Shown here one piece after another: positions 9,406-34,175 of a stretch of DNA of 34,175 nt (position 1 is its first letter; each line of letters opens with the position of its first letter). Source of the stretch: Clostridiales bacterium. Its GTDB lineage: Bacteria > Bacillota > Sulfobacillia > UBA995. Under the pieces are notes generated by a model. It saw only the letters and a list, made by a program, of their open reading frames with translations, searched no databases and was not told the origin of the DNA. The translations under genes were made by a program, and so were the position numbers. The stretch spans positions 1 to 34,175 of the forward strand of contig DOZU01000239.1 in the NCBI GenBank assembly GCA_003517845.1, written 5' to 3'.

Positions 9406-10532
9406 TGGCCGTTGACGGGGACAACCTCCGTCACGGCCAGATGGCCGGTCCGGGCGGTCAGGAGACCGCGGGCGGACACCCGCGCGCCTTTCTCGAGCGC
9501 AAGGATCTGCGCTCGAACAGCGTCGTCGCCCAGGCGACTCCACAGCACGGCCCGCTCGCCGGCACCCAAGACGCCGTCTGCCGCATCAACCGCGCAGACG
9601 GGGACTCGGGCGGTCTTGCCGCGGGAGTCCGCCCGCTCTTCGGGGGCAGCTACGACGGCAAAGGTCCCCGCAAACACACGCGGGGGCGGGAGCTGGTCAG
9701 CCCCGGCACCGGTCTTTTCCGGGACCGGGACCGCGGTCGGGTCCGGGGCAGGAAGGGCCTCCGGCTGCGGAGCGGCAAGTTCTGTAGCCCTCTTGGCGGG
9801 CGCCGAGCGCCGGGCCGGCTTTTCGGCCAGCTCGGAAGGCGGGGGAGTCGTCCCCGCGCCCACGCTCGCGCCGTCGCCGTCGACGAACGTGAGTTCTTCC
9901 ACGCTCGTCAACCCCAGCGCGTACGCGAGCCGTATTGCACGGTTCGCGGCGCGGGTACGCGCCATCGCCCGCACGTCCTTCCATGTCGGGCGTTTCAGCC
10001 CGACATCATCAAACGAGGCTTCGCCGAACTCGACGAAGCCCCCGCAAGTGGGGGACTTCTTGAGTTCGGCGCGCCAGCAGGACCATCCGGTCCCGGGCTG
10101 CACCCGGGGCCGGAAGACGTTGCCTTCCTGCGCCCACTGGATGCGCCCTTGCGCATCCAGCAAGTACTCGGGGAGGCCCTCCTGATGGAGGGCCAAATGG
10201 ATTCCGTGGGCCTGGCGGTCTTCCGCCAGGCGCCGCAGGCCCCCGGAGGAAACATAAGGCTTTCCTCCGAGGACCAACAGGTCGCCGAGGAAGGGGTCCA
10301 GGCCATACGCCACAGCCGCGTAGGCCAGGTGCCTCTGGTCCTCCGGCGACAGGTCCTTGGGCCAGAGGGACATCCGGGCCCCGCGCTCCAAAAGCTCGCG
10401 GAGCTGGGACTCCGGCACCAACGGTTCTTTGTTGGGGGCGGGGGCAGGCCGAACAGCCACAGCTCGCACCTCCCGGCGGCGGCCAAGGCCGCCACGAAAC
10501 ACAGCCGCGGCTTGTGATCCGCGGCGAGACAA
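9402..10532 (-). CDS. RecT/Bet-like single-strand annealing protein with a C-terminal OB-fold-like extension
   Basis: YGLDPFLGDLLVLGGKPYVSSGGLRRLA and AMARTRAANRAIRLAY resemble phage RecT/Bet recombinases. The last ~110 aa (FAGTFAVVAAPEE...VSARGLLTARTGHLAVTEVVPV) look like a separate beta-rich domain. The start is uncertain: TTG 10532 behind GGAGGGAGG, or an internal GTG behind GGGAGGTG. Confidence 0.6.
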   Translation of the reverse strand: MSRRGSQAAAVFRGGLGRRREVRAVAVRPAPAPNKEPLVPESQLRELLERGARMSLWPKDLSPEDQRHLAYAAVAYGLDPFLGDLLVLGGKPYVSSGGLRRLAEDRQAHGIHLALHQEGLPEYLLDAQGRIQWAQEGNVFRPRVQPGTGWSCWRAELKKSPTCGGFVEFGEASFDDVGLKRPTWKDVRAMARTRAANRAIRLAYALGLTSVEELTFVDGDGASVGAGTTPPPSELAEKPARRSAPAKRATELAAPQPEALPAPDPTAVPVPEKTGAGADQLPPPRVFAGTFAVVAAPEERADSRGKTARVPVCAVDAADGVLGAGERAVLWSRLGDDAVRAQILALEKGARVSARGLLTARTGHLAVTEVVPVNGQ

Positions 10533-10545
10533 GACACGAAACCTC

Positions 10546-10704
10546 CCTCCCGCGCCCCTGAGGGGCGCTTGATATTGCCCCTCGGGAAAAGGCGCGGGAG
10601 CACCGCGCGGGTTTTCCGGGGGGCCCTGTTGGAAGCTGACACAGGACCGGGATAAAGACCCCCGGAAACCCGCGCGCCAGCATACAACGGCTTATGGCAC
10701 GCGG
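10546..10704 (-). promoter_or_regulatory. Conserved structured 5' leader / regulatory RNA element, copy A (upstream of the replication-recombination operon)
   Basis: About 96% identical by eye to 19471..19628, in the same orientation. RNA sense contains a ~17-bp outer helix GCGCGGGUUUCCGGGGG / CCCCCGGAAAACCCGCGC, an inner CCUGU...ACAGG hairpin, and a 3' helix CUCCCGCGCC / GGCGCGGGAG that includes the SD. Confidence 0.55.
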
Positions 10705-10733
10705 AGAAAAGGGGACCCCGGCAGGGGTCCCCC
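10704..10733 (-). terminator. Intrinsic terminator
   Basis: RNA sense GGGGACCCC-UGCC-GGGGUCCCC followed by UUUUCUCC. Lies 27 nt after the stop at 10760. Confidence 0.75.
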
Positions 10734-10759
10734 GCACTTCAATCGTACGTACTGCGGCC

Positions 10760-10996
10760 TTACGCTCTAAGCAGGTACGATGCGGATGCGAGCGCTGGAG
10801 GCGCATCGCTACTCTGCTCGTACACCCCCAGGGCCTTGCGCTCTAGATGGGCGGTATCCGCCCACGCAGGCCCAGCGTAGAGGTATTCGGAGAGGTTCGC
10901 GGTCTCCTCCGCGTAAGTTCTAAACCCCGACGGGGAGAACGCGAAAAAGACGCGGCCGCCTTTACGCTCGACGAACTTATGCAGCAGTTGCTGCAC
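10760..10996 (-). CDS. Hypothetical protein (78 aa)
   Basis: GTG 10996 lies 8 nt behind GGGAGG. Composition is ordinary (VQQLLHKFVERKGGRVFFAFSPSGFRTYAEETANLSEYLYAG...). Bracketed by two terminators. Confidence 0.5.
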   Translation of the reverse strand: MQQLLHKFVERKGGRVFFAFSPSGFRTYAEETANLSEYLYAGPAWADTAHLERKALGVYEQSSDAPPALASASYLLRA

Positions 10997-12223: not shown

Positions 12224-12381
12224 CTTTCCTCCCCCTTTGCCGGTCAGGCTCCGGAAAGACGAGCCTGACCGAGACAACGCCGCCCCGTACACGCGAGCGC
12301 GGGGCGCAGTGGACAAGCCAACGAAAAGACGAGGGCAGAGGCAAGGCCGCGCAAGCGACCGTTGCCTTTGATCGAACGGCC

Positions 12382-14312: not shown

Positions 14313-14429
14313 TGTGATCTCCTTTCTGCCGGGACTTGCTGCTCCCAGCGGAACCGGGGCGGGCTCTAAGGCCTCCCCGCCGAGAACTCCGCCCCGAACG
14401 GAAGCGGGGCGCATCGGACAAACCAACGC

Positions 14430-18922: not shown

Positions 18923-19462
18923 TCAGTAGGTCGCCGCCGGAGTGCAGACGGCGGGACCGCCCCGGGCCCGGAGCCGGCACGCTTCGAGGCGTGCCGACCC
19001 GGGATAGAGAGTGAGGTTGCCCATCGCCCGGGCGGCGACGGGCTTTATGTCGTCGGCGTCGCCGGCGGGGGAACCGCCGACGGGCTGCCATCCGGGTCCG
19101 ACCACCCGGAACTCCCGGAAGAGTTCCAGGCGGGTGCCCGGGGGGAACAGCCCGGCGTACCAGCCGCCCCGCCGGCACACCCAAAGGGTGCCGGCCGGGG
19201 TCTCAAGGACACGACCCTTGGCGCAGATGAAAAGCGCCTGGGGCCAAGTTCCGGCCGGCGCCGGGGCCAGCCGGAACCGCACGGGGCCGCCGGGCTCGGC
19301 TCGCCAGCCCCGGAGGAAGAACACTCCGGGGTGGGCCGGCGCGGAGCCCTCAAAGAGCAGCTCCACGTTGGCCCGGGTGAACCGGAGCCGGCCGCGGGGA
19401 CGCTCGACGATGTCCGGCCGGGCGAAGACCCGGTCGGACACCTCGACCGCAAAATCGGACAT
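18923..19462 (-). CDS. Hypothetical protein (179 aa), first gene after leader copy B
   Basis: ATG 19462 lies 6 nt behind GGGAGGTG, which is the 3' end of the leader. Product MSDFAVEVSDRVFARPDIVERPRGRLRFTRANVELLFEG... looks beta-rich. No family recognised. Confidence 0.65.
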   Translation of the reverse strand: MSDFAVEVSDRVFARPDIVERPRGRLRFTRANVELLFEGSAPAHPGVFFLRGWRAEPGGPVRFRLAPAPAGTWPQALFICAKGRVLETPAGTLWVCRRGGWYAGLFPPGTRLELFREFRVVGPGWQPVGGSPAGDADDIKPVAARAMGNLTLYPGSARLEACRLRARGGPAVCTPAATY

Positions 19463-19470
19463 CAAACCCA

Positions 19471-19628
19471 CCTCCCGCGCCCCTCAGGGGCGCTTGATAT
19501 TGCCCCTCGGGAAAAGGCGCGGGAGCACCGCGCGGGTTTTCCGGGGGGCCCTGTTGGAAGCTGACACAGGACCGGGTTAGAACCCCCGGAAACCCGCGCG
19601 CCAGCATACAACGGCTTATGGCACGCGG
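19471..19628 (-). promoter_or_regulatory. Conserved structured 5' leader / regulatory RNA element, copy B (upstream of the accessory operon)
   Basis: Second copy of 10546..10704. It differs only by one base in the CCCCU-N-AGGGG apex and by a 6-7-nt patch (GGGUUCUAACCC vs GGGUCUUUAUCCC) between the outer and inner helices. Confidence 0.55.
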
Positions 19629-19639
19629 GAAAGAACGCA

Positions 19640-19723
19640 AAATGCTCAAAAGGCTTGACCAAGAAAGGGCCGCCGCAAGCCCCCGGCTTCAGACACAGGG
19701 ATAAGGCGGCCTTTTCTTGGTCA
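19640..19723 (-). terminator. Long hairpin plus U-rich tail ending the upstream operon
   Basis: 19-nt arms TGACCAAGAAAAGGCCGCC / GGCGGCCCTTTCTTGGTCA (one mismatch) around a 30-nt insert, followed in RNA sense by AGCCUUUUGAGCAUUUUGCGUUCUUUCC. Confidence 0.5.
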
Positions 19724-19786
19724 GCCCGAGACCACACAGGAGGAGGAGAGCGGTCCGGGGCCGAAGGGCCCGCTCCGGCAAGGCCG

Positions 19787-20551
19787 TCAGCTTGAAGCGA
19801 GGCGGACGGGCTCAAGGCCGCGGCTGACGGGCCGCCAGAACTCGGCCCGGCCGTGAAATAGCGGGCCGTCCCAGGTCAGGCGGATCTCCATGCCGGATAC
19901 GCGGACCACACGGCCGAGTTCTTCGGCTTGTTCGCGGGAGCCGGCTACCAGGACGAGCACCGAGGCGATATCGGCGGAAAGACGCGCCGCGTCACGCGCC
20001 CAGTCGAGTTCGCCAGGCCACAGCCGGGCGACGAGGACGCCGAAAGGGGCGCCGGCGGAAAAGATGGCGGTCAGGCCGCCGCCGGGCTCGATCTGCACGG
20101 GAAACGGACCCCAAAGACGCCATAGCAGCATATAAAGCTGTGAGGAGGCGGCCAGACGCAAGGCGCGCAAGGGCTCCCAATCCTCGACAACGGGAGGGCC
20201 GCCCATGAGGCGGCGGCCGCACGGGCCTTCGACGTAAAGCGAGGGGATGCGGCTTGAGAGAAAGTCCAGCCGATCGGCTAAACCGCCCCGGCACATGCGC
20301 CGGAGGAGGTCGCGGACGGAGTGCACGCCTACCCCCGCCAGCTCGCCTAGCTGAGCACCGGACATGCACCGGAACCGGCGCAGGAGGCTTAATGCGGCTG
20401 CATCCGCTTCGGACACCAAAGGGCCGGGAGGCGCGAAGGCGGCCGCAGACGTGTTGGAAATTACGCGCCGAAGATGGATGCAACCGGCGGGATCGCCGCT
20501 CCAAGGGCCCCGGCCGGAAGCACGCCTCAGCGCTTCAACAGGGGTTCCCAC
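19787..20551 (-). CDS. Winged-helix protein, replication-relaxation-family-like
   Basis: GTG 20551 lies 6 nt behind GGAGGT. The N-terminal segment AALSLLRRFRCMSGAQLGELAGVGVHSVRDLLRRMCRGGLADRLDF looks like a wHTH of the Replic_Relax type. The remainder is unassigned. Confidence 0.5.
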   Translation of the reverse strand: MGTPVEALRRASGRGPWSGDPAGCIHLRRVISNTSAAAFAPPGPLVSEADAAALSLLRRFRCMSGAQLGELAGVGVHSVRDLLRRMCRGGLADRLDFLSSRIPSLYVEGPCGRRLMGGPPVVEDWEPLRALRLAASSQLYMLLWRLWGPFPVQIEPGGGLTAIFSAGAPFGVLVARLWPGELDWARDAARLSADIASVLVLVAGSREQAEELGRVVRVSGMEIRLTWDGPLFHGRAEFWRPVSRGLEPVRLASS

Positions 20552-21540
20552 GCGAAGACCTCCAACACGCGGAGCCCCATTCGCCGCTGGGACGGGTCAA
20601 GCCGCGTCACCAGAACGAGAACTTCGGCTCCGGGGATCAAGGACTGGGGGCCGGGACGCGGAGCATAGCCGGTGAGGCCGCCATCAAGCTCCACGAGATA
20701 TCCTTTGGTGGAAATCGCGCAGGCCACCCGGCCGCGATGCTTGGTGCCGGGCGGGTATAGCTCGCCGGCGCGATCCCAGGGGTCGGGCAAGAGCGGCCGC
20801 AGCGAGAGACGCAGAAATTCTTTTTCGCGGCACGCCGCTAGCACGGCGAGCTTCAAGGAGGCGCCGCGCCGGACGTAAGCGAGCTGCCGGGCGTCGGGCG
20901 CGTGCGACCAAGTCATCTCTTCAACGGGCAGCCATCCGACCAGGCCGCCGACTTCCACGCCGGCGCCGCGGCGGGAGACCCAGCGCACGCAGCCTACTAC
21001 CACGGGCGCTTCGGCGCGCTCTTGCCGGCGAAGTTCGTCTATGCGCGCCCGCAATTCGTCGGTTTCAGGCGATTTGCCGCCGTTTTCGGAGGCGATCTCC
21101 CTCAGGCGGCCGAGTGCCTGGCGAAGCTCTTCTTGGAGGACGCCGTGGCCGGCGGCTGCGGGCTCCAAAGCTTGCCAGGTGGCGGGGATGAGTTCTTCCA
21201 AGGCTTCCCGGCGCGAGAGCTGCACCTGGCCGAGCGCTCGGTCAACAGACTTGATCCGGACGAATACGGACCAGCCGATCATCTCATCGATCCGGCGGGG
21301 ACGCGGATGCCCGATCTCTCCTTCGGGGAGGTGCCCGATCACGCCGGCGCCGAACGACACGCGCAGACGGCGGCGGCCGGTGGCGGGATCGACATCGCAG
21401 CCGCTCACATCCACCCGCAAGGGCTTGCCGGACTCCAAGGCGGCCTTGAGACGACCGTAAACCTCGGCGGACTGCGCGACGCCGAGATCGACTGCAGGCC
21501 GGTGACGCACGCCTTCGTTGCGGAGCTTTACCAAGCGCAC
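20527..21540 (-). CDS. Protein with three S1-like RNA-binding (OB) domains and a central coiled-coil
   Basis: GTG 21540 lies behind AAAGGAGG. S1-type segments: RVSFGAGVIGHLPEGEIGH, GCVRWVSRRGAGVEVGGLVGWLPVEEMTW, GRVACAISTKGYLVELDGGLTGYAP. Confidence 0.7.
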   Translation of the reverse strand: MRLVKLRNEGVRHRPAVDLGVAQSAEVYGRLKAALESGKPLRVDVSGCDVDPATGRRRLRVSFGAGVIGHLPEGEIGHPRPRRIDEMIGWSVFVRIKSVDRALGQVQLSRREALEELIPATWQALEPAAAGHGVLQEELRQALGRLREIASENGGKSPETDELRARIDELRRQERAEAPVVVGCVRWVSRRGAGVEVGGLVGWLPVEEMTWSHAPDARQLAYVRRGASLKLAVLAACREKEFLRLSLRPLLPDPWDRAGELYPPGTKHRGRVACAISTKGYLVELDGGLTGYAPRPGPQSLIPGAEVLVLVTRLDPSQRRMGLRVLEVFAWEPLLKR

Positions 21541-21561
21541 GAGGATCGTCCTCCTTTTGGA

Positions 21562-21906
21562 CTAAGACACGTTCCGCCGGAGAGCGACGGGACGCTGCTG
21601 GCTGCCGGCGCAGGTCTCCAGGACGAGCGCAGGCACGGGAAGGGGTTTCCGGGGCTGAGGGCCCCGAGCACCGCGGCGGCGCGGAAACTGCCAACGGGAC
21701 GGCACGAGGGCGGGCTTCAGGATTACGGGTTCGGTAGAGACGCGGTAGACGAGGCCCGGCCAACAATCAACGAGCGAGGACACATAACGGTCCAAGTGCT
21801 CGGGATCACGATAGCCGGTGGAACAGCCGGCGAGGACTTCGACCCAGCGCAGCTCGCCGTTTACGGGCTTGAAGACGTACTGGTCGGCCCAATACACGTA
21901 AAGCAT
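21562..21906 (-). CDS. Hypothetical protein (114 aa)
   Basis: ATG 21906 lies behind AAAGGGTGA. Product MLYVYWADQYVFKPVNGELRWVEVLAGCSTGYRDPEHLDRYVSSLVDCWPGLVYRV... has normal composition in its first ~70 aa. Confidence 0.55.
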   Translation of the reverse strand: MLYVYWADQYVFKPVNGELRWVEVLAGCSTGYRDPEHLDRYVSSLVDCWPGLVYRVSTEPVILKPALVPSRWQFPRRRGARGPQPRKPLPVPALVLETCAGSQQRPVALRRNVS

Positions 21907-21912
21907 GACATG

Positions 21913-22518
21913 TCACCCTTTTTCTGGTTCATCATTGCTACAGTGCCACACGCGCTGCTCGCCGAGCGAGTGCTCGAGAGAATGGGTTATCGCGCAGGTC
22001 CACAGGCCGAAGGCGTCGGCAAGATACACGGCGGGCACGTGGTGGGCGTAAGCTTCGGCCAGGCCGACCGCAAGCCAGAGGGGCGCGAGACCGGGCAGAA
22101 AAACGGCCCGGCCAGCTCCCACGTCGGGCGGGACCAATAGGGACAAGGACACAAAACGCGGCCGGTCGGGACACACAAGCGCGCCGGGGGGACCGAAGAA
22201 CACCCGCCAGCCCAAAGGGCCGCCGCCAAAGCCGGACGGAGGAGGACAGGCCAAAAGCGCGCGCCTGGGGATCAGGCCGGGCCAGGCTAGCCGAACGGGC
22301 CGGGGACGGAAAGCGTGCGCGAGCACGGCCACGAGCCACGCGGGCGCGGGCTCGTCGATTACCAGCAGGATGCTGGCAGCGTCAGGGGCGCACTGGAAAG
22401 CACGCCGGCGCAGAGGCTCGGCCAAGCCCGCCGGGAAGAACGCGGCGGGCCCGCGGCCGCAGTCGCGGACGAGACGGGAAACATGGACGACGCTCTGCCG
22501 GCTAGACACCGGCTTCAC
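21913..22518 (-). CDS. Hypothetical protein (~200 aa), possibly membrane-associated
   Basis: Lies within ORF 21913..22668. The start is placed at GTG 22518, just after the NERD gene stop, and is uncertain because the SD is weak. The C-terminal part has high-GC3 codons and diverse residues (...VFLPGLAPLWLAVGLAEAYAHHVPAVYLADAFGLWTCAITHSLEHSLGEQRVWHCSNDEPEKG). Confidence 0.5.
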   Translation of the reverse strand: MKPVSSRQSVVHVSRLVRDCGRGPAAFFPAGLAEPLRRRAFQCAPDAASILLVIDEPAPAWLVAVLAHAFRPRPVRLAWPGLIPRRALLACPPPSGFGGGPLGWRVFFGPPGALVCPDRPRFVSLSLLVPPDVGAGRAVFLPGLAPLWLAVGLAEAYAHHVPAVYLADAFGLWTCAITHSLEHSLGEQRVWHCSNDEPEKG

Positions 22519-23257
22519 ACTTTCTTTGCGTAAAAGCACGGGCACGCCGGCGCGCGGCACGGTCGATGTCCAGCACGACGGAGCCCAAGGCCCGGGGATC
22601 CGCGACGGGACGGGCGCTCGACAGGAGAGTCGGGACGAGATCGGCGGGGTCCCAGACGACGGCGGCACCTTCGAAGGCTGCGGGCATGTCAGGACCGGGA
22701 TCGGAATCGACGAAGGCCACGGCCGGCTGCACCCATACGAAGTGCCGGCGCCGGCGAAGCTCGTTGCCGAGAGCGGCGGCCGCCGCGACCGCCTGACGGA
22801 CGGGATCGCGCATGGGGATAGCCGAGCCGGACAGCCAGCGGTACCAGCCGCCGGGGCCGCAGGCTATCTCGCCCCGCCAGCATTTGGTCTCGATGGCCCA
22901 TATGCCGGAAGGGCCGGCGATGACGTGGTCGATCTGGCGGGGACAGCCGCCGGATGAAGCCGGCACACGCACGTCGTGCAGCACGTACCAGCCGGCGGGA
23001 AGCCCGCGGCCGAGCGTGCGGGCAATGACGGCCTCGCCAAACCGGCCGGCACCCAGGATGCGGGCGCGCTCGCCGGCAAGCATGCAGGCCCAGGGGATGG
23101 CAACCAGAACGGCAAGCCACAGGAGCCAGTTCCGGAAAAGCACGTCGAGGCGCACGAACATCCACCAAGTGAAGACCAAAGGCAGGACAAACTGAAGGAA
23201 CTGCAAAGCCCAGATGCCCGGCCACAGGCGACGCCGGGGCTTGAGGATTTTGGCCAT
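22502..23257 (-). CDS. Membrane-anchored NERD (nuclease-related domain) protein
   Basis: Corresponds to the last 251 codons of ORF 22502..24319, from ATG 23257. Two N-terminal hydrophobic helices, then AGRFGEAVIARTLGRGLPAGWYVLHDVRVP...RQIDHVIAGPSGIWAIETKCWRGEI, the NERD signature. Confidence 0.8.
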   Translation of the reverse strand: MAKILKPRRRLWPGIWALQFLQFVLPLVFTWWMFVRLDVLFRNWLLWLAVLVAIPWACMLAGERARILGAGRFGEAVIARTLGRGLPAGWYVLHDVRVPASSGGCPRQIDHVIAGPSGIWAIETKCWRGEIACGPGGWYRWLSGSAIPMRDPVRQAVAAAAALGNELRRRRHFVWVQPAVAFVDSDPGPDMPAAFEGAAVVWDPADLVPTLLSSARPVADPRALGSVVLDIDRAARRRARAFTQRKCEAGV

Positions 23258-28866: not shown

Positions 28867-30009
28867 CTAGAGCGGCTCATCAAACCAATCGGAGGGGAAG
28901 TCGCCCGGCAGCCGCAGATCAAGCTCGCCGGAACGCAGGTCGCAGACGAAGGGGTGCGCGGGCACGAGCCAGGAGATACGCTGCCAGCCGCGCGAGCTGG
29001 CGAGGTCGGCGACGCGGGCCATAACCGGCTCGATGTCGGTCTCGTACCAGTTGAACCAGAAAAGGATCCGCGCTACAGGACGGCCGTCCACCAAGACAAT
29101 GCCGGCCATGCAGTCGGCTCCGAGGCACCAGGGCACGGCGCTGAGCCGCTGCGCCCCGAAGACGACGCTTTCGGGGGGAACAGACGCCAAAACGCCGGGA
29201 ACATCCTCGAGGAACTCGAAGAAGAAGTCGGGCATGGGCCGCAGGAGTCCGCGGAGGCTGTCCCCTTCCCAGGATGCGGGGTCGGCCGGATCGCGGCCCC
29301 GACGCTGAAGGCCGGCACGGATGTGCCAGAGGCTGCCGGACATCGGCCGAACGGGGATGCCGCGATGGGAGTACCACCAAAGGGCGGTGCGCAGCCGGCG
29401 CAGGTAACGCGCGTATTCAAGGCCCCGGCGGGACGGAGGGACCGACTGCCAGGGGTCGCAATCGAAGAGCTGATTGAAGGTCCAAAAAGGCAGGACGGGC
29501 CGGCGCCGCCTGCCGGGAGGGCGCGGCGCGTCGAGAGCGCGTATTATGGCGAGGTCCGGCCAGGGGCACCGCCACAGCTCGGCTGAAGGCGGGTCGGGCT
29601 CGGGAACGGAGTCCGGACGGTCTTCCCCGCCCCATACCTGGCGCCAGAACGGCGCGCGCAGTACGGAGTGAGGGGCGCAGGCCACGAGTACGTGACGGCC
29701 GGCCGCGTGCGTCTGAAGTATGCGGGGGAGCACGGGCTCGGTGGTTCGAGGAAAGACGCGCCAGTTCAAGGAGGCCAGATCTTGAACGTCCTTCAAGGGA
29801 ACGAACGGAGGCAGGCGCAATTCGACCAGCCGAGGGGCGGCGCGGCCGCCACCGGATACGATGACGGCCTCCGCCGCCGCAAGACGGCCGTTGAGCAGAC
29901 ACAAGGCAAGACGCACGGTGTCAATCTTGGGCGGAGGCGCACCTGCGGACACAGGGAAGAAACGCAGAACCCAGCCACCGGAACGCCGAAGGACTTGCGC
30001 GGTGTCCAC
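28867..30009 (-). CDS. Hypothetical Trp-rich protein (380 aa) downstream of the coupling ATPase
   Basis: Lies within ORF 28867..30219. Start placed at GTG 30009, 10 nt behind GGGGGAGG, because earlier starts would overlap the T4CP gene by >100 nt. No relaxase or other motif recognised. Confidence 0.55.
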   Translation of the reverse strand: MDTAQVLRRSGGWVLRFFPVSAGAPPPKIDTVRLALCLLNGRLAAAEAVIVSGGGRAAPRLVELRLPPFVPLKDVQDLASLNWRVFPRTTEPVLPRILQTHAAGRHVLVACAPHSVLRAPFWRQVWGGEDRPDSVPEPDPPSAELWRCPWPDLAIIRALDAPRPPGRRRRPVLPFWTFNQLFDCDPWQSVPPSRRGLEYARYLRRLRTALWWYSHRGIPVRPMSGSLWHIRAGLQRRGRDPADPASWEGDSLRGLLRPMPDFFFEFLEDVPGVLASVPPESVVFGAQRLSAVPWCLGADCMAGIVLVDGRPVARILFWFNWYETDIEPVMARVADLASSRGWQRISWLVPAHPFVCDLRSGELDLRLPGDFPSDWFDEPL

Positions 30010-33831: not shown

Positions 33832-33869
33832 GAAATGCGCCCTCCCCCCCTAGCTGCTCCCAACGCACC

Positions 33870-33910
33870 CCGGTCTGCTTTGGCGCCCGCAGGCGCCGTC
33901 AGCAGCCCGG
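33870..33910. repeat. 41-nt imperfect palindromic hairpin, copy 1
   Basis: CCGGTCTGCTTTGGCGCCCGCAGGCGCCGTCAGCAGCCCGG. It recurs at 34029..34069 with three substitutions. Confidence 0.6.
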
Positions 33911-34028
33911 AACCCGCACGCGAAAACCCCGCATAATAGCCGCTTGGAAAGCCGTATGGATCCACGCCTTTCCCGGATATGAAAACCCACGCAACACCAA
34001 CCAGACCAGCTCTCGGTCCCGGCCTGCT

Positions 34029-34069
34029 TTGGCGCCTGCAGGCGCCGTCAGCAGACCGGGACCTTCCCC
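34029..34069. repeat. 41-nt imperfect palindromic hairpin, copy 2
   Basis: CCGGCCTGCTTTGGCGCCTGCAGGCGCCGTCAGCAGACCGG. It contains the perfect 16-bp palindrome GGCGCCTGCAGGCGCC and starts 159 bp after copy 1. Confidence 0.6.
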
Positions 34070-34175
34070 GGGGGCTCCGCCCCCGGCACCCCCCCAGGGG
34101 CCTTGCCCCTACCACCCCTCGAAAAATAGGGACGACGCCACTCGCGACAAGCGCTCGTGTAATCCCCAAGCGAAA

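Follow-up and report, generated by a model that had tools for sequence, protein, structure and literature searches.

The window analysed here is the 34,175-nucleotide (nt) stretch at positions 1 to 34,175 of contig DOZU01000239.1 (GenBank assembly GCA_003517845.1, Clostridiales bacterium). Its minus strand carries nearly all of the genes, from ~33.8 kb down to 2.1 kb, and two intergenic regions on this strand contain copies, here called A and B, of a structured element that we tentatively interpret as a leader cassette. Copy A precedes an array encoding a protein of 352 amino acids (352-aa), a primase, a nuclease and PolA; copy B runs into the gene for a 179-aa protein at the head of an array that includes MoxR and VWA genes. 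The initial annotation of the window had labelled the primase (DUF3854/Zn-ribbon), PD-(D/E)XK nuclease and PolA of the first array and the MoxR and VWA proteins (RavA/ViaA) of the second, and all of these assignments were confirmed. Its 'RecT' label for the 352-aa protein finds no support in Pfam, PHROGs or PDB sequence searches. The genes upstream of the two copies differ, encoding 78 aa before A and 254 aa before B.

The duplicated element and its fold

A repeat search of the whole window, with MAFFT alignment, places the copies as a direct repeat in the same orientation (Table 1), with a unit of ~172 bases and an overall identity of ~95%. The near-identical duplicate described in the initial annotation is thus borne out, with an identity of ~97% within the boundaries given there. 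Its location was correct but its 3' end was not: the repeat continues for ~13 nt, through the Shine–Dalgarno sequence (SD) and the initiation codon, and ends two bases beyond that codon (ATGTC in B, GTGTC in A). Eight of the 146 columns of the structured part distinguish the copies, and the 26 nt 5' of it show no difference. The longest further repeat in the window is 46 nt and none other comes near the length of the element, in agreement with the earlier statement. Four distinct element sequences are available, namely A, A' (one linker substitution), B and the type found on a related plasmid (L006). The element is non-coding: a 1-nt indel between A and B breaks the reading frame of a possible small open reading frame (ORF), and the L006 element is without an ATG. 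Three Logan assembly contigs of the same plasmid (L003, L004 and L237) stop exactly inside the element, as short-read assemblies are expected to do at a repeat.

Both copies are read on the minus strand, which is the sense strand of the downstream genes. Folding reproduces the three parts proposed earlier: an outer helix P1 of 16–17 bp with one bulged A, an enclosed hairpin P2 (GGUCCUGU/ACAGGGCC) and then a second GC-rich domain, with P3, a helix of 10 bp, at its base and P4 inside it. The stems are GC-only. The window copies have a minimum free energy (MFE) of −85 to −87 kcal/mol, with z = −4.7 to −5.4, and none of 200 shuffles of the same dinucleotide composition was equally stable. Within domain 1 the differences between the copies are located in the internal loop 10659-10649. 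A terminator lies upstream of each copy, as had been claimed (Table 1). The description of the element as a non-coding, strongly structured sequence at the head of gene arrays is supported by this fold and by the comparison given below.

We note that a terminator-like site is scored on the plus strand of both copies (10552-10568 and 19477-19493), formed by the palindrome of domain 2 and the TTGATATTG that follows it; the counterpart on the relative's plus strand is GCGCCCGTCAGGGCGC plus TTTGATTGG. A terminator role on this strand was rejected, there being no upstream plus-strand gene to terminate and no plus-strand promoter nearby. Several known classes of element were also considered and set aside. 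A miniature inverted-repeat transposable element or insertion sequence does not fit, as the ends (CCGCGTGCC... and ...TTT(C/G)(G/A)TGTC) are non-complementary and the flanks have no target-site duplication; a retron would need a reverse transcriptase gene, and none is present; an antisense RNA gene was rejected for want of an antisense promoter inside the conserved part; an integron attC site was considered and dropped.

Table 1. Coordinates of the two copies, their parts and associated features in the window
Feature	Positions	Strand	Remarks
Copy B, apparent ancestral site	19458..19628	-	26–27-nt upstream block, two hairpin domains, SD, ATG plus two bases
Copy A, apparently duplicated from the B cassette and placed before the leader that the 352-aa gene already had	10533..10704	-	
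Intrinsic terminator closing the upstream gene array, directly 5' of copy A	10707..10733	-	10-bp GC stem plus UUUU
Very long-stem terminator-like hairpin 5' of copy B, then U-rich sequence	19651..19727	-	−50.9 kcal/mol, z = −4.7
5' block CCGCGTGCCATAAGCCGTTGTATGCTG between terminator and P1	19603..19628 (copy A: 10679-10704)	-	Sole candidate promoter/operator segment; identical in A and B
Domain 1, copy B	19530..19599	-	P1 19599-19584/19546-19530 (16 bp plus bulged A); P2 19573-19566/19554-19547
Domain 1, copy A	10605..10675	-	P1 10675-10660/10621-10605; P2 10648-10641/10629-10622
Domain 2, copy B	19472..19525	-	P3 (CUCCCGCGCC/GGCGCGGGAG) 19525-19516/19481-19472, covers GGAG of SD; P4 19511-19502/19491-19482; holds palindrome GCGCCCCUGAGGGGCGC
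Domain 2, copy A	10547..10600	-	P3 10600-10591/10556-10547; P4 10586-10577/10566-10557
Working start of 179-aa gene, copy B	19460..19475	-	SD GGAGGUG 19475-19469, ATG 19462-19460; gene call L001:8783-9322; SD and ATG kept in L006
Relic translation start, copy A	10535..10551	-	GGGAGGGAGG, UUUC, GUG 10537-10535; four substitutions relative to B and L006
Unique leader after copy A	10458..10532	-	Hairpin 10525-10504 with U-rich tail, second hairpin, SD 10474-10467, GTG 10460-10458
Generic leader hairpin GCGCCCCG...CGGGGCG	14390..14412; second at 12281-12307	-	Intergenic modules

History, conservation and translation starts

Protein homologue searches with the DUF6744, 352-aa and 179-aa proteins as queries covered 5.8 billion clusters and returned only the lineage of the window itself (several assemblies), a 93% variant, the contig of which is cut inside the element, and one lineage at 64–69% protein identity. 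The metagenome-assembled genome (MAG) of this related lineage, GCA_002291985, is placed in Firmicutes_E, class DTU015, and was recovered from biofilm of a hydrothermal vent (PMC10746088); the run behind it, SRR1636517, sampled the Prony Bay chimneys (PMC11933879). In this lineage the element is single-copy (L006:7157-7325, 76% identical) and lies upstream of the 179-aa orthologue, which corresponds to the B site. The related 352-aa orthologue has a different and shorter leader (L233:1600-1760), and this leader has the same ending as the 75 nt found only after copy A, a hairpin followed by GGAGGUG. Since the relative is single-copy at the B site and has a different leader at its 352-aa orthologue, the comparison indicates that copy A arose recently, within the lineage of the window only, by duplication of the intergenic cassette at B, and was set before an older leader. 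The two copies at two operon heads described in the initial annotation are thus accounted for by a recent duplication and not by a conserved two-site design, the sole related lineage having one copy, at the B site.

No third copy occurs in positions 22809-59337 of the 66-kb source contig. Exact and gapped DNA patterns from the element gave no matches in IMG/VR, and blastn at word size 11 gave none in 72,556 plasmid records (PLSDB) or 50,697 phage records. Pattern matches in JGI metagenomes (107) and in GTDB genomes (at least 117, with a pattern that was too short) were all identified by nhmmer as chance GC-rich hairpins. A covariance model built from the element (R2) found nothing in a distant integrative and conjugative element (ICE) or in a Rubrobacter plasmid, both of which carry DUF6744, MoxR and VWA genes, and no comparable repeats are present there. 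Rfam 15 gave no match anywhere in the window at gathering thresholds, in line with the initial annotation, which had matched it to no riboswitch or ribozyme consensus, and a permissive Rfam search of 10400-10800 gave only matches of microRNA and small nucleolar RNA type, at 27 bits or less against thresholds of 40–100. The element is unclassified and narrowly distributed, being found in two plasmid lineages of uncultured bacteria.

Between the two lineages the structured part of the element is 76–85% identical, compared with 70–79% for the neighbouring genes and 45–54% for the adjacent 160 nt of non-coding DNA. Changes between B and L006 affect 3 of the 52 positions of P1 and P3, all of them indels (a paired G/C deletion and the loss of the bulge), versus 25 of 93 elsewhere (Fisher p = 0.002). 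P3 has not changed at all in L006, and P1 is retained there through the paired G/C deletion and bulge loss. The distal part of domain 1 cannot be aligned between the lineages, yet it still forms a hairpin. Between A and B, 1 of 86 paired positions differs versus 7 of 60 unpaired positions (Fisher p = 0.008), and the single change in A' sits in the linker. Function of the element at the B site is very probable.

The comparison also favours the RNA sense proposed in the initial annotation. RNAalifold reports three one-sided changes, all of which preserve pairing by G-U on the sense strand. The MFE of the sense strand minus that of the antisense strand is −0.1 (A), −2.4 (B) and −8.0 (L006) kcal/mol; in the relative, then, folding of the antisense strand is less stable by 8 kcal/mol. 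Sense sequences score 75–187 bits with the covariance model and antisense sequences 13–21 bits, with the qualification that this model was built from sense sequences and leans that way. Taken together, these observations support selection on the sense-strand fold. With only two lineages the structure is not statistically proven.

The initial annotation had each copy ending at the ribosome-binding site of the first gene. This holds for copy B, with its ATG at 19462, but in copy A the site is a relic. The real start of the 352-aa gene, according to the gene call and to alignment with its orthologue P0020 (N-terminus MAVS... versus MAVR...), is GTG 10460, which has its own SD and lies 77 nt beyond the relic start. 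Relative to the outgroup L006 the start region of copy A shows GGUGGG to GGGAGG and AUG to GUG, L006 agreeing with B, and four of the eight differences between A and B fall within 13 nt of this region (p = 0.002). In B and L006 the GGAGG of the SD has a mean unpaired probability of 0.12–0.18 at both 37 and 55°C. A stable helix on the SD that is kept in relatives, as is expected of a generic SD-sequestering leader, is found for B and L006, in which P3 and the SD are invariant. It is not found for copy A, where the paired site is the relic. We note that the relic GTG opens a stop-free frame of 180 codons (window 9995-10537, minus strand) that overlaps the 352-aa gene out of frame. The GC content at third codon positions is high only over the first ~25 codons, and the frame is probably not translated.

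The 26–27-nt block before P1 is presumed from its position to be a promoter or operator. Patterns for sigma-54, extracytoplasmic function and sporulation sigma factors gave no convincing match there, by eye or by scan, and L006 has five substitutions in a 24-nt motif of the block. Both plasmids share a common intergenic layout, consisting of a terminator, a T-rich stretch, GTTG(G) and, 7–18 nt further on, a hairpin of the form GCGCCCC-loop-GGGGCG with a U-rich tail. This pattern has six matches in the window against 0.55 expected, and none of 100 shuffles reached six. The hairpin also occurs in the relatives (L233:258-281, L233:1685-1707 and L006:13845-13869), with spacers of 3 to 13 nt. Since its stem sequence is also the palindrome within domain 2 of both copies, the element looks like an enlarged version of the general operon-head module of the plasmid. 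As a separate observation, the two intergenic modules at ~14500-14380 and ~12400-12270 on the minus strand, after the VWA gene and before the DUF1828 gene, are homologous (GCGGCCTTGCCTCTGCC..CGTTGG(T/C)TTGTCC..TGCGCCCCG); they make up another leader or terminator module that is repeated, with greater divergence between its copies.

The proteins encoded in the window include a TrwB/TraG-type coupling protein, two DNA methylases, a NERD protein and a weakly Replic_Relax-like protein. Elsewhere on the same 66-kb metagenomic contig are a ParM-like actin, Tad proteins and an SLH protein. The nearest relatives of PolA are cyanobacterial plasmid polymerases (40–43% identity). The gene content looks like that of a plasmid or ICE, of conjugative-plasmid type, in an uncultured high-GC Firmicute, and is not evidently that of a phage. 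An AlphaFold model of the 179-aa product was unusable (pLDDT 46). Upstream of copy B in the same array, the region 20527-22668 (minus strand; L001:5685-7718) encodes a Csx3-like protein (22.5 bits, cut-off 21) and another in which an S1 RNA-binding domain scores at the borderline (22.2 bits versus 22), both parted from copy B by the 254-aa Replic_Relax-like gene; these could be RNA-acting partners. The 46-nt direct repeat (33869-33914 and 34018-34063, 91% identical), each unit of which has the palindrome GGCGCC(C/T)GCAGGCGCC, is set in a non-coding, AT-richer region of ~730 nt upstream of an RNase H gene, and this region (33832-34175 and beyond) is a candidate origin of transfer or of vegetative replication. 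Outside the window on the same plasmid contig, approximately five tandem units of ~68 nt (GGCCCCNGGAGGGGACCC plus GTTAGTGGTTGCTGACAG / CTCAGCGGCGGGCGCAG) lie just downstream of the ParM-like gene (L238:6629-6930) and are probably a partition centromere. A distant DUF6744-MoxR-VWA cluster lies in an ICE of 42% GC (L247:1-10385) beside DUF3560 and AcrVA2-like genes, with the motif GGGTTTATCAG repeated before gene groups, and its sequence suggests a region of establishment or anti-defence type with its own repeated operators.

Interpretation and alternatives

In our view, the reading that ranks first is that the element is an operon-head leader cassette, comprising a putative promoter and a 5' untranslated region, that acts in cis as RNA; we give it a probability of about 0.45. 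The 26–27-nt block would serve as the promoter or operator, and a 5' untranslated RNA of ~145 nt would fold during transcription into two very stable hairpin domains. At the B site and in the related plasmid, domain 2 is predicted to base pair with the GGAG of the SD of the 179-aa gene, which would keep its translation low, and the structured 5' end may protect the transcript. The whole cassette, to two bases past the start codon, would then have been copied before the older leader of the replication/recombination array, giving that array the same upstream block and leader as B, and the copied ribosome site would have decayed later with the helices intact. As the ribosome site decayed and the helices were kept, any contribution of copy A would be on transcription or RNA rather than on translation from its own start, and SD pairing would not be its retained function, the paired site there being a relic. 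The sign and magnitude of any regulatory effect, like any partner acting in trans, are inferred.

Several observations weigh against this interpretation. The differences between A and B cluster into ~4–5 events, and the Fisher tests consequently overstate their independence. None of the 44 pairs shows changes on both sides, and only two independent lineages are available. The perfect conservation of both arms of P1 and P3 fits DNA recognition equally well. The true SD of the gene after copy A is predicted to be just as paired (0.17), so that occlusion of the SD is not special to this leader. A scan for the sigma-70 consensus, which may not be that of the host, found no promoter in either copy on either strand, and the putative −10 sequence TATGCT reads TGTGCT in the relative. 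With this −10 altered and no consensus present, transcription could instead arrive by read-through.

Next in order is a doubtful possibility, a cis-acting antiterminator in which the nascent two-domain leader makes RNA polymerase read through intrinsic terminators in the co-directional arrays. Cis-acting RNA antiterminators are reported to be widespread on Gram-positive conjugative elements (PMC8191782, PMC11658703), and the related MAG is a Firmicute (PMC10746088), a host that lends this reading prior weight. Candidate terminators, seen as sense-strand terminator-like hairpins, lie beyond both copies, at 10525-10504 after A and, ahead of the DUF6744 gene, at 18791-18763 and 18304-18273. Terminator-like hairpins with unusually long stems bound the arrays, 19727-19651 (~30 bp, −50.9 kcal/mol) and 14487-14442 (a perfect 19-bp stem), and a study of pLS20 reports that terminators with long stems withstand processive antitermination (PMC10325885). 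The loss of the ribosome site from copy A with retention of its helices likewise fits a role at the level of transcription. On the other hand, each copy directly follows a terminator and does not lie deep within a transcript, the array after copy A is without a strong internal terminator past 10525, and no protein gene is common to the regions upstream of both copies, unlike the conAn1-conAn2 arrangement. The size of ~145 nt falls between those of put (~70 nt) and canT/conAn2 (300–450 nt), and the covariance model for put finds nothing at the element. In the relative a reverse-strand 211-aa ORF follows the first two genes, and the possibility that the element heads just two small genes there weakens a long-range antitermination role. 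A bolder form of the proposal, which we consider less probable again, is that the element represents a new family of compact (~145 nt), protein-independent antiterminator or elongation-modifying leader RNAs of high-GC Firmicute conjugative plasmids, spread by cassette duplication that would place a second array under the same control.

The remaining readings are improbable. One is that the element is a single-stranded DNA signal used after conjugative entry, an Frpo/ssi-type or sso-type hairpin origin or promoter placed in one orientation ahead of establishment genes. The replicon does have genes for a type IV coupling protein as well as for a primase and a polymerase of its own, both strands fold strongly, the distant DUF6744-MoxR-VWA cluster lies among anti-defence-type genes in an ICE, and repeated Frpo elements in the same orientation ahead of leading-region genes are well documented (PMC11541004). 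However, −35, −10 and UP-like hexamers are absent from every stem on either strand, the stems being pure GC, and nothing similar was found among the PLSDB plasmids. The wobble changes favour the sense strand, which in the Frpo model is the non-template strand, and a DNA origin explains neither why the repeat stops at the start codon nor why the SD is paired.

We likewise give little weight to a double-stranded operator region, in which the inverted repeats would bind a plasmid-encoded repressor co-regulating both promoters and the hairpins would be incidental. The conservation of the P1 and P3 arms in sequence, beyond pairing, is what such a site predicts; repeated operator motifs before establishment genes are known from p576 (Reg576; PMC6294495), and a short repeated motif is present in the distant ICE L247. 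The arms of 16–17 bp are, however, separated by ~38–41 nt, a distance that varies between lineages and is unlike that of dimeric operators. The GCGCCCC/GGGGCG spacers of 3 to 13 nt fit a hairpin and not a DNA site of fixed spacing, and changes of the G-U type are tolerated on one strand only.

It is similarly unlikely that the duplication is recent and essentially neutral, with copy A a by-product of recombination, only the B leader of importance and the hairpins mostly a matter of GC-rich composition or terminator-like insulation. Such a view accommodates the absence of copy A from the sister lineage, the small number of mutational events (~4–5) that separate A from B, the breaks of assemblies at the repeat (L003, L004 and L237) and the GC-rich hairpins that are common in other intergenic regions. 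Against it stand the conservation of the B-site element, which is like that of coding sequence across the lineages while the flanking non-coding DNA is not conserved, the stability of the folds far beyond that of dinucleotide-matched shuffles, and the avoidance of paired positions by the differences.

If the leader cassette acting in cis as RNA proves functional, it would be a small, tractable addition to the poorly understood cis-acting leader RNAs of gene arrays on Gram-positive conjugative elements, and would show how regulation can be rewired when a leader cassette is duplicated in its entirety. For now its value is limited, as two plasmid lineages do not allow structure and function to be established by comparison.

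Comparison with known systems

The initial annotation had likened the element to the putL and putR RNAs of phage HK022. There is a resemblance, in that two similar two-hairpin nascent RNAs lie near the starts of two transcription units on a mobile element, with action in cis proposed here. Put RNAs act on RNA polymerase in cis without protein factors, from a site between a promoter and the terminators that they suppress. The present element is about twice the size of put, and its copies are direct repeats of 95% identity, one of them apparently a recent duplicate. Unlike put, it comes directly after a terminator, and copy B runs into a ribosome-binding site. A covariance model built from putL (L249:28238-28306, minus strand) and putR (29457-29522, plus strand), which recovers both at 86–89 bits, finds nothing at either copy; its best match in the window, 7.6 bits, lies elsewhere, and membership of the put family is ruled out.

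With the zipper-type attenuator cATT of the pLS20-family conjugation operons (PMC13401043) the element shares a long imperfect leader stem-loop and the combination of a weak upstream and a strong downstream hairpin. A cATT is nevertheless not supported: the flanks of P1 are non-complementary (one C-G pair, then mismatches), and the U-rich run starts 5–6 nt after P3. As domain 2 has no directly adjacent U-tract, no terminator/antiterminator alternative is evident. Frpo/ssi elements are also repeated, strongly folding, non-coding sequences in the same orientation that immediately precede groups of genes on a conjugative replicon, and the defining feature of single-stranded promoters of the Frpo type is that the stem contains −35, −10 and UP elements (PMC11541004). 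The stems of the present element contain none of these, it has no homology to plasmid records and its fold is favoured on the sense and not the template strand.

Generic SD-sequestering leaders and 5' stabiliser hairpins resemble the element in that a stable helix covers the SD of the gene that comes first and a long helix is located at or near what is presumed to be the 5' end. It differs from them in that no alternative fold responsive to ligand, temperature or protein was found and in that the sequestered site of copy A is a relic. The conAn arrangement, in which the RNA comes immediately after the conAn1 protein gene within one transcript, was not seen, there being no shared protein gene before the copies, each of which starts within ~35 nt of a terminator, with the limit that ConAn1 homology itself was not searched. 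Unlike canT of Tn916 and conAn2 of pLS20 (300–450 nt), the element is only ~145 nt. In other respects it is like these RNAs: the host phylum and the type of replicon are the same, a structured non-coding RNA heads long co-directional arrays with internal terminators, and the canT and conAn2 families are likewise poorly conserved in sequence (PMC8191782, PMC11658703).

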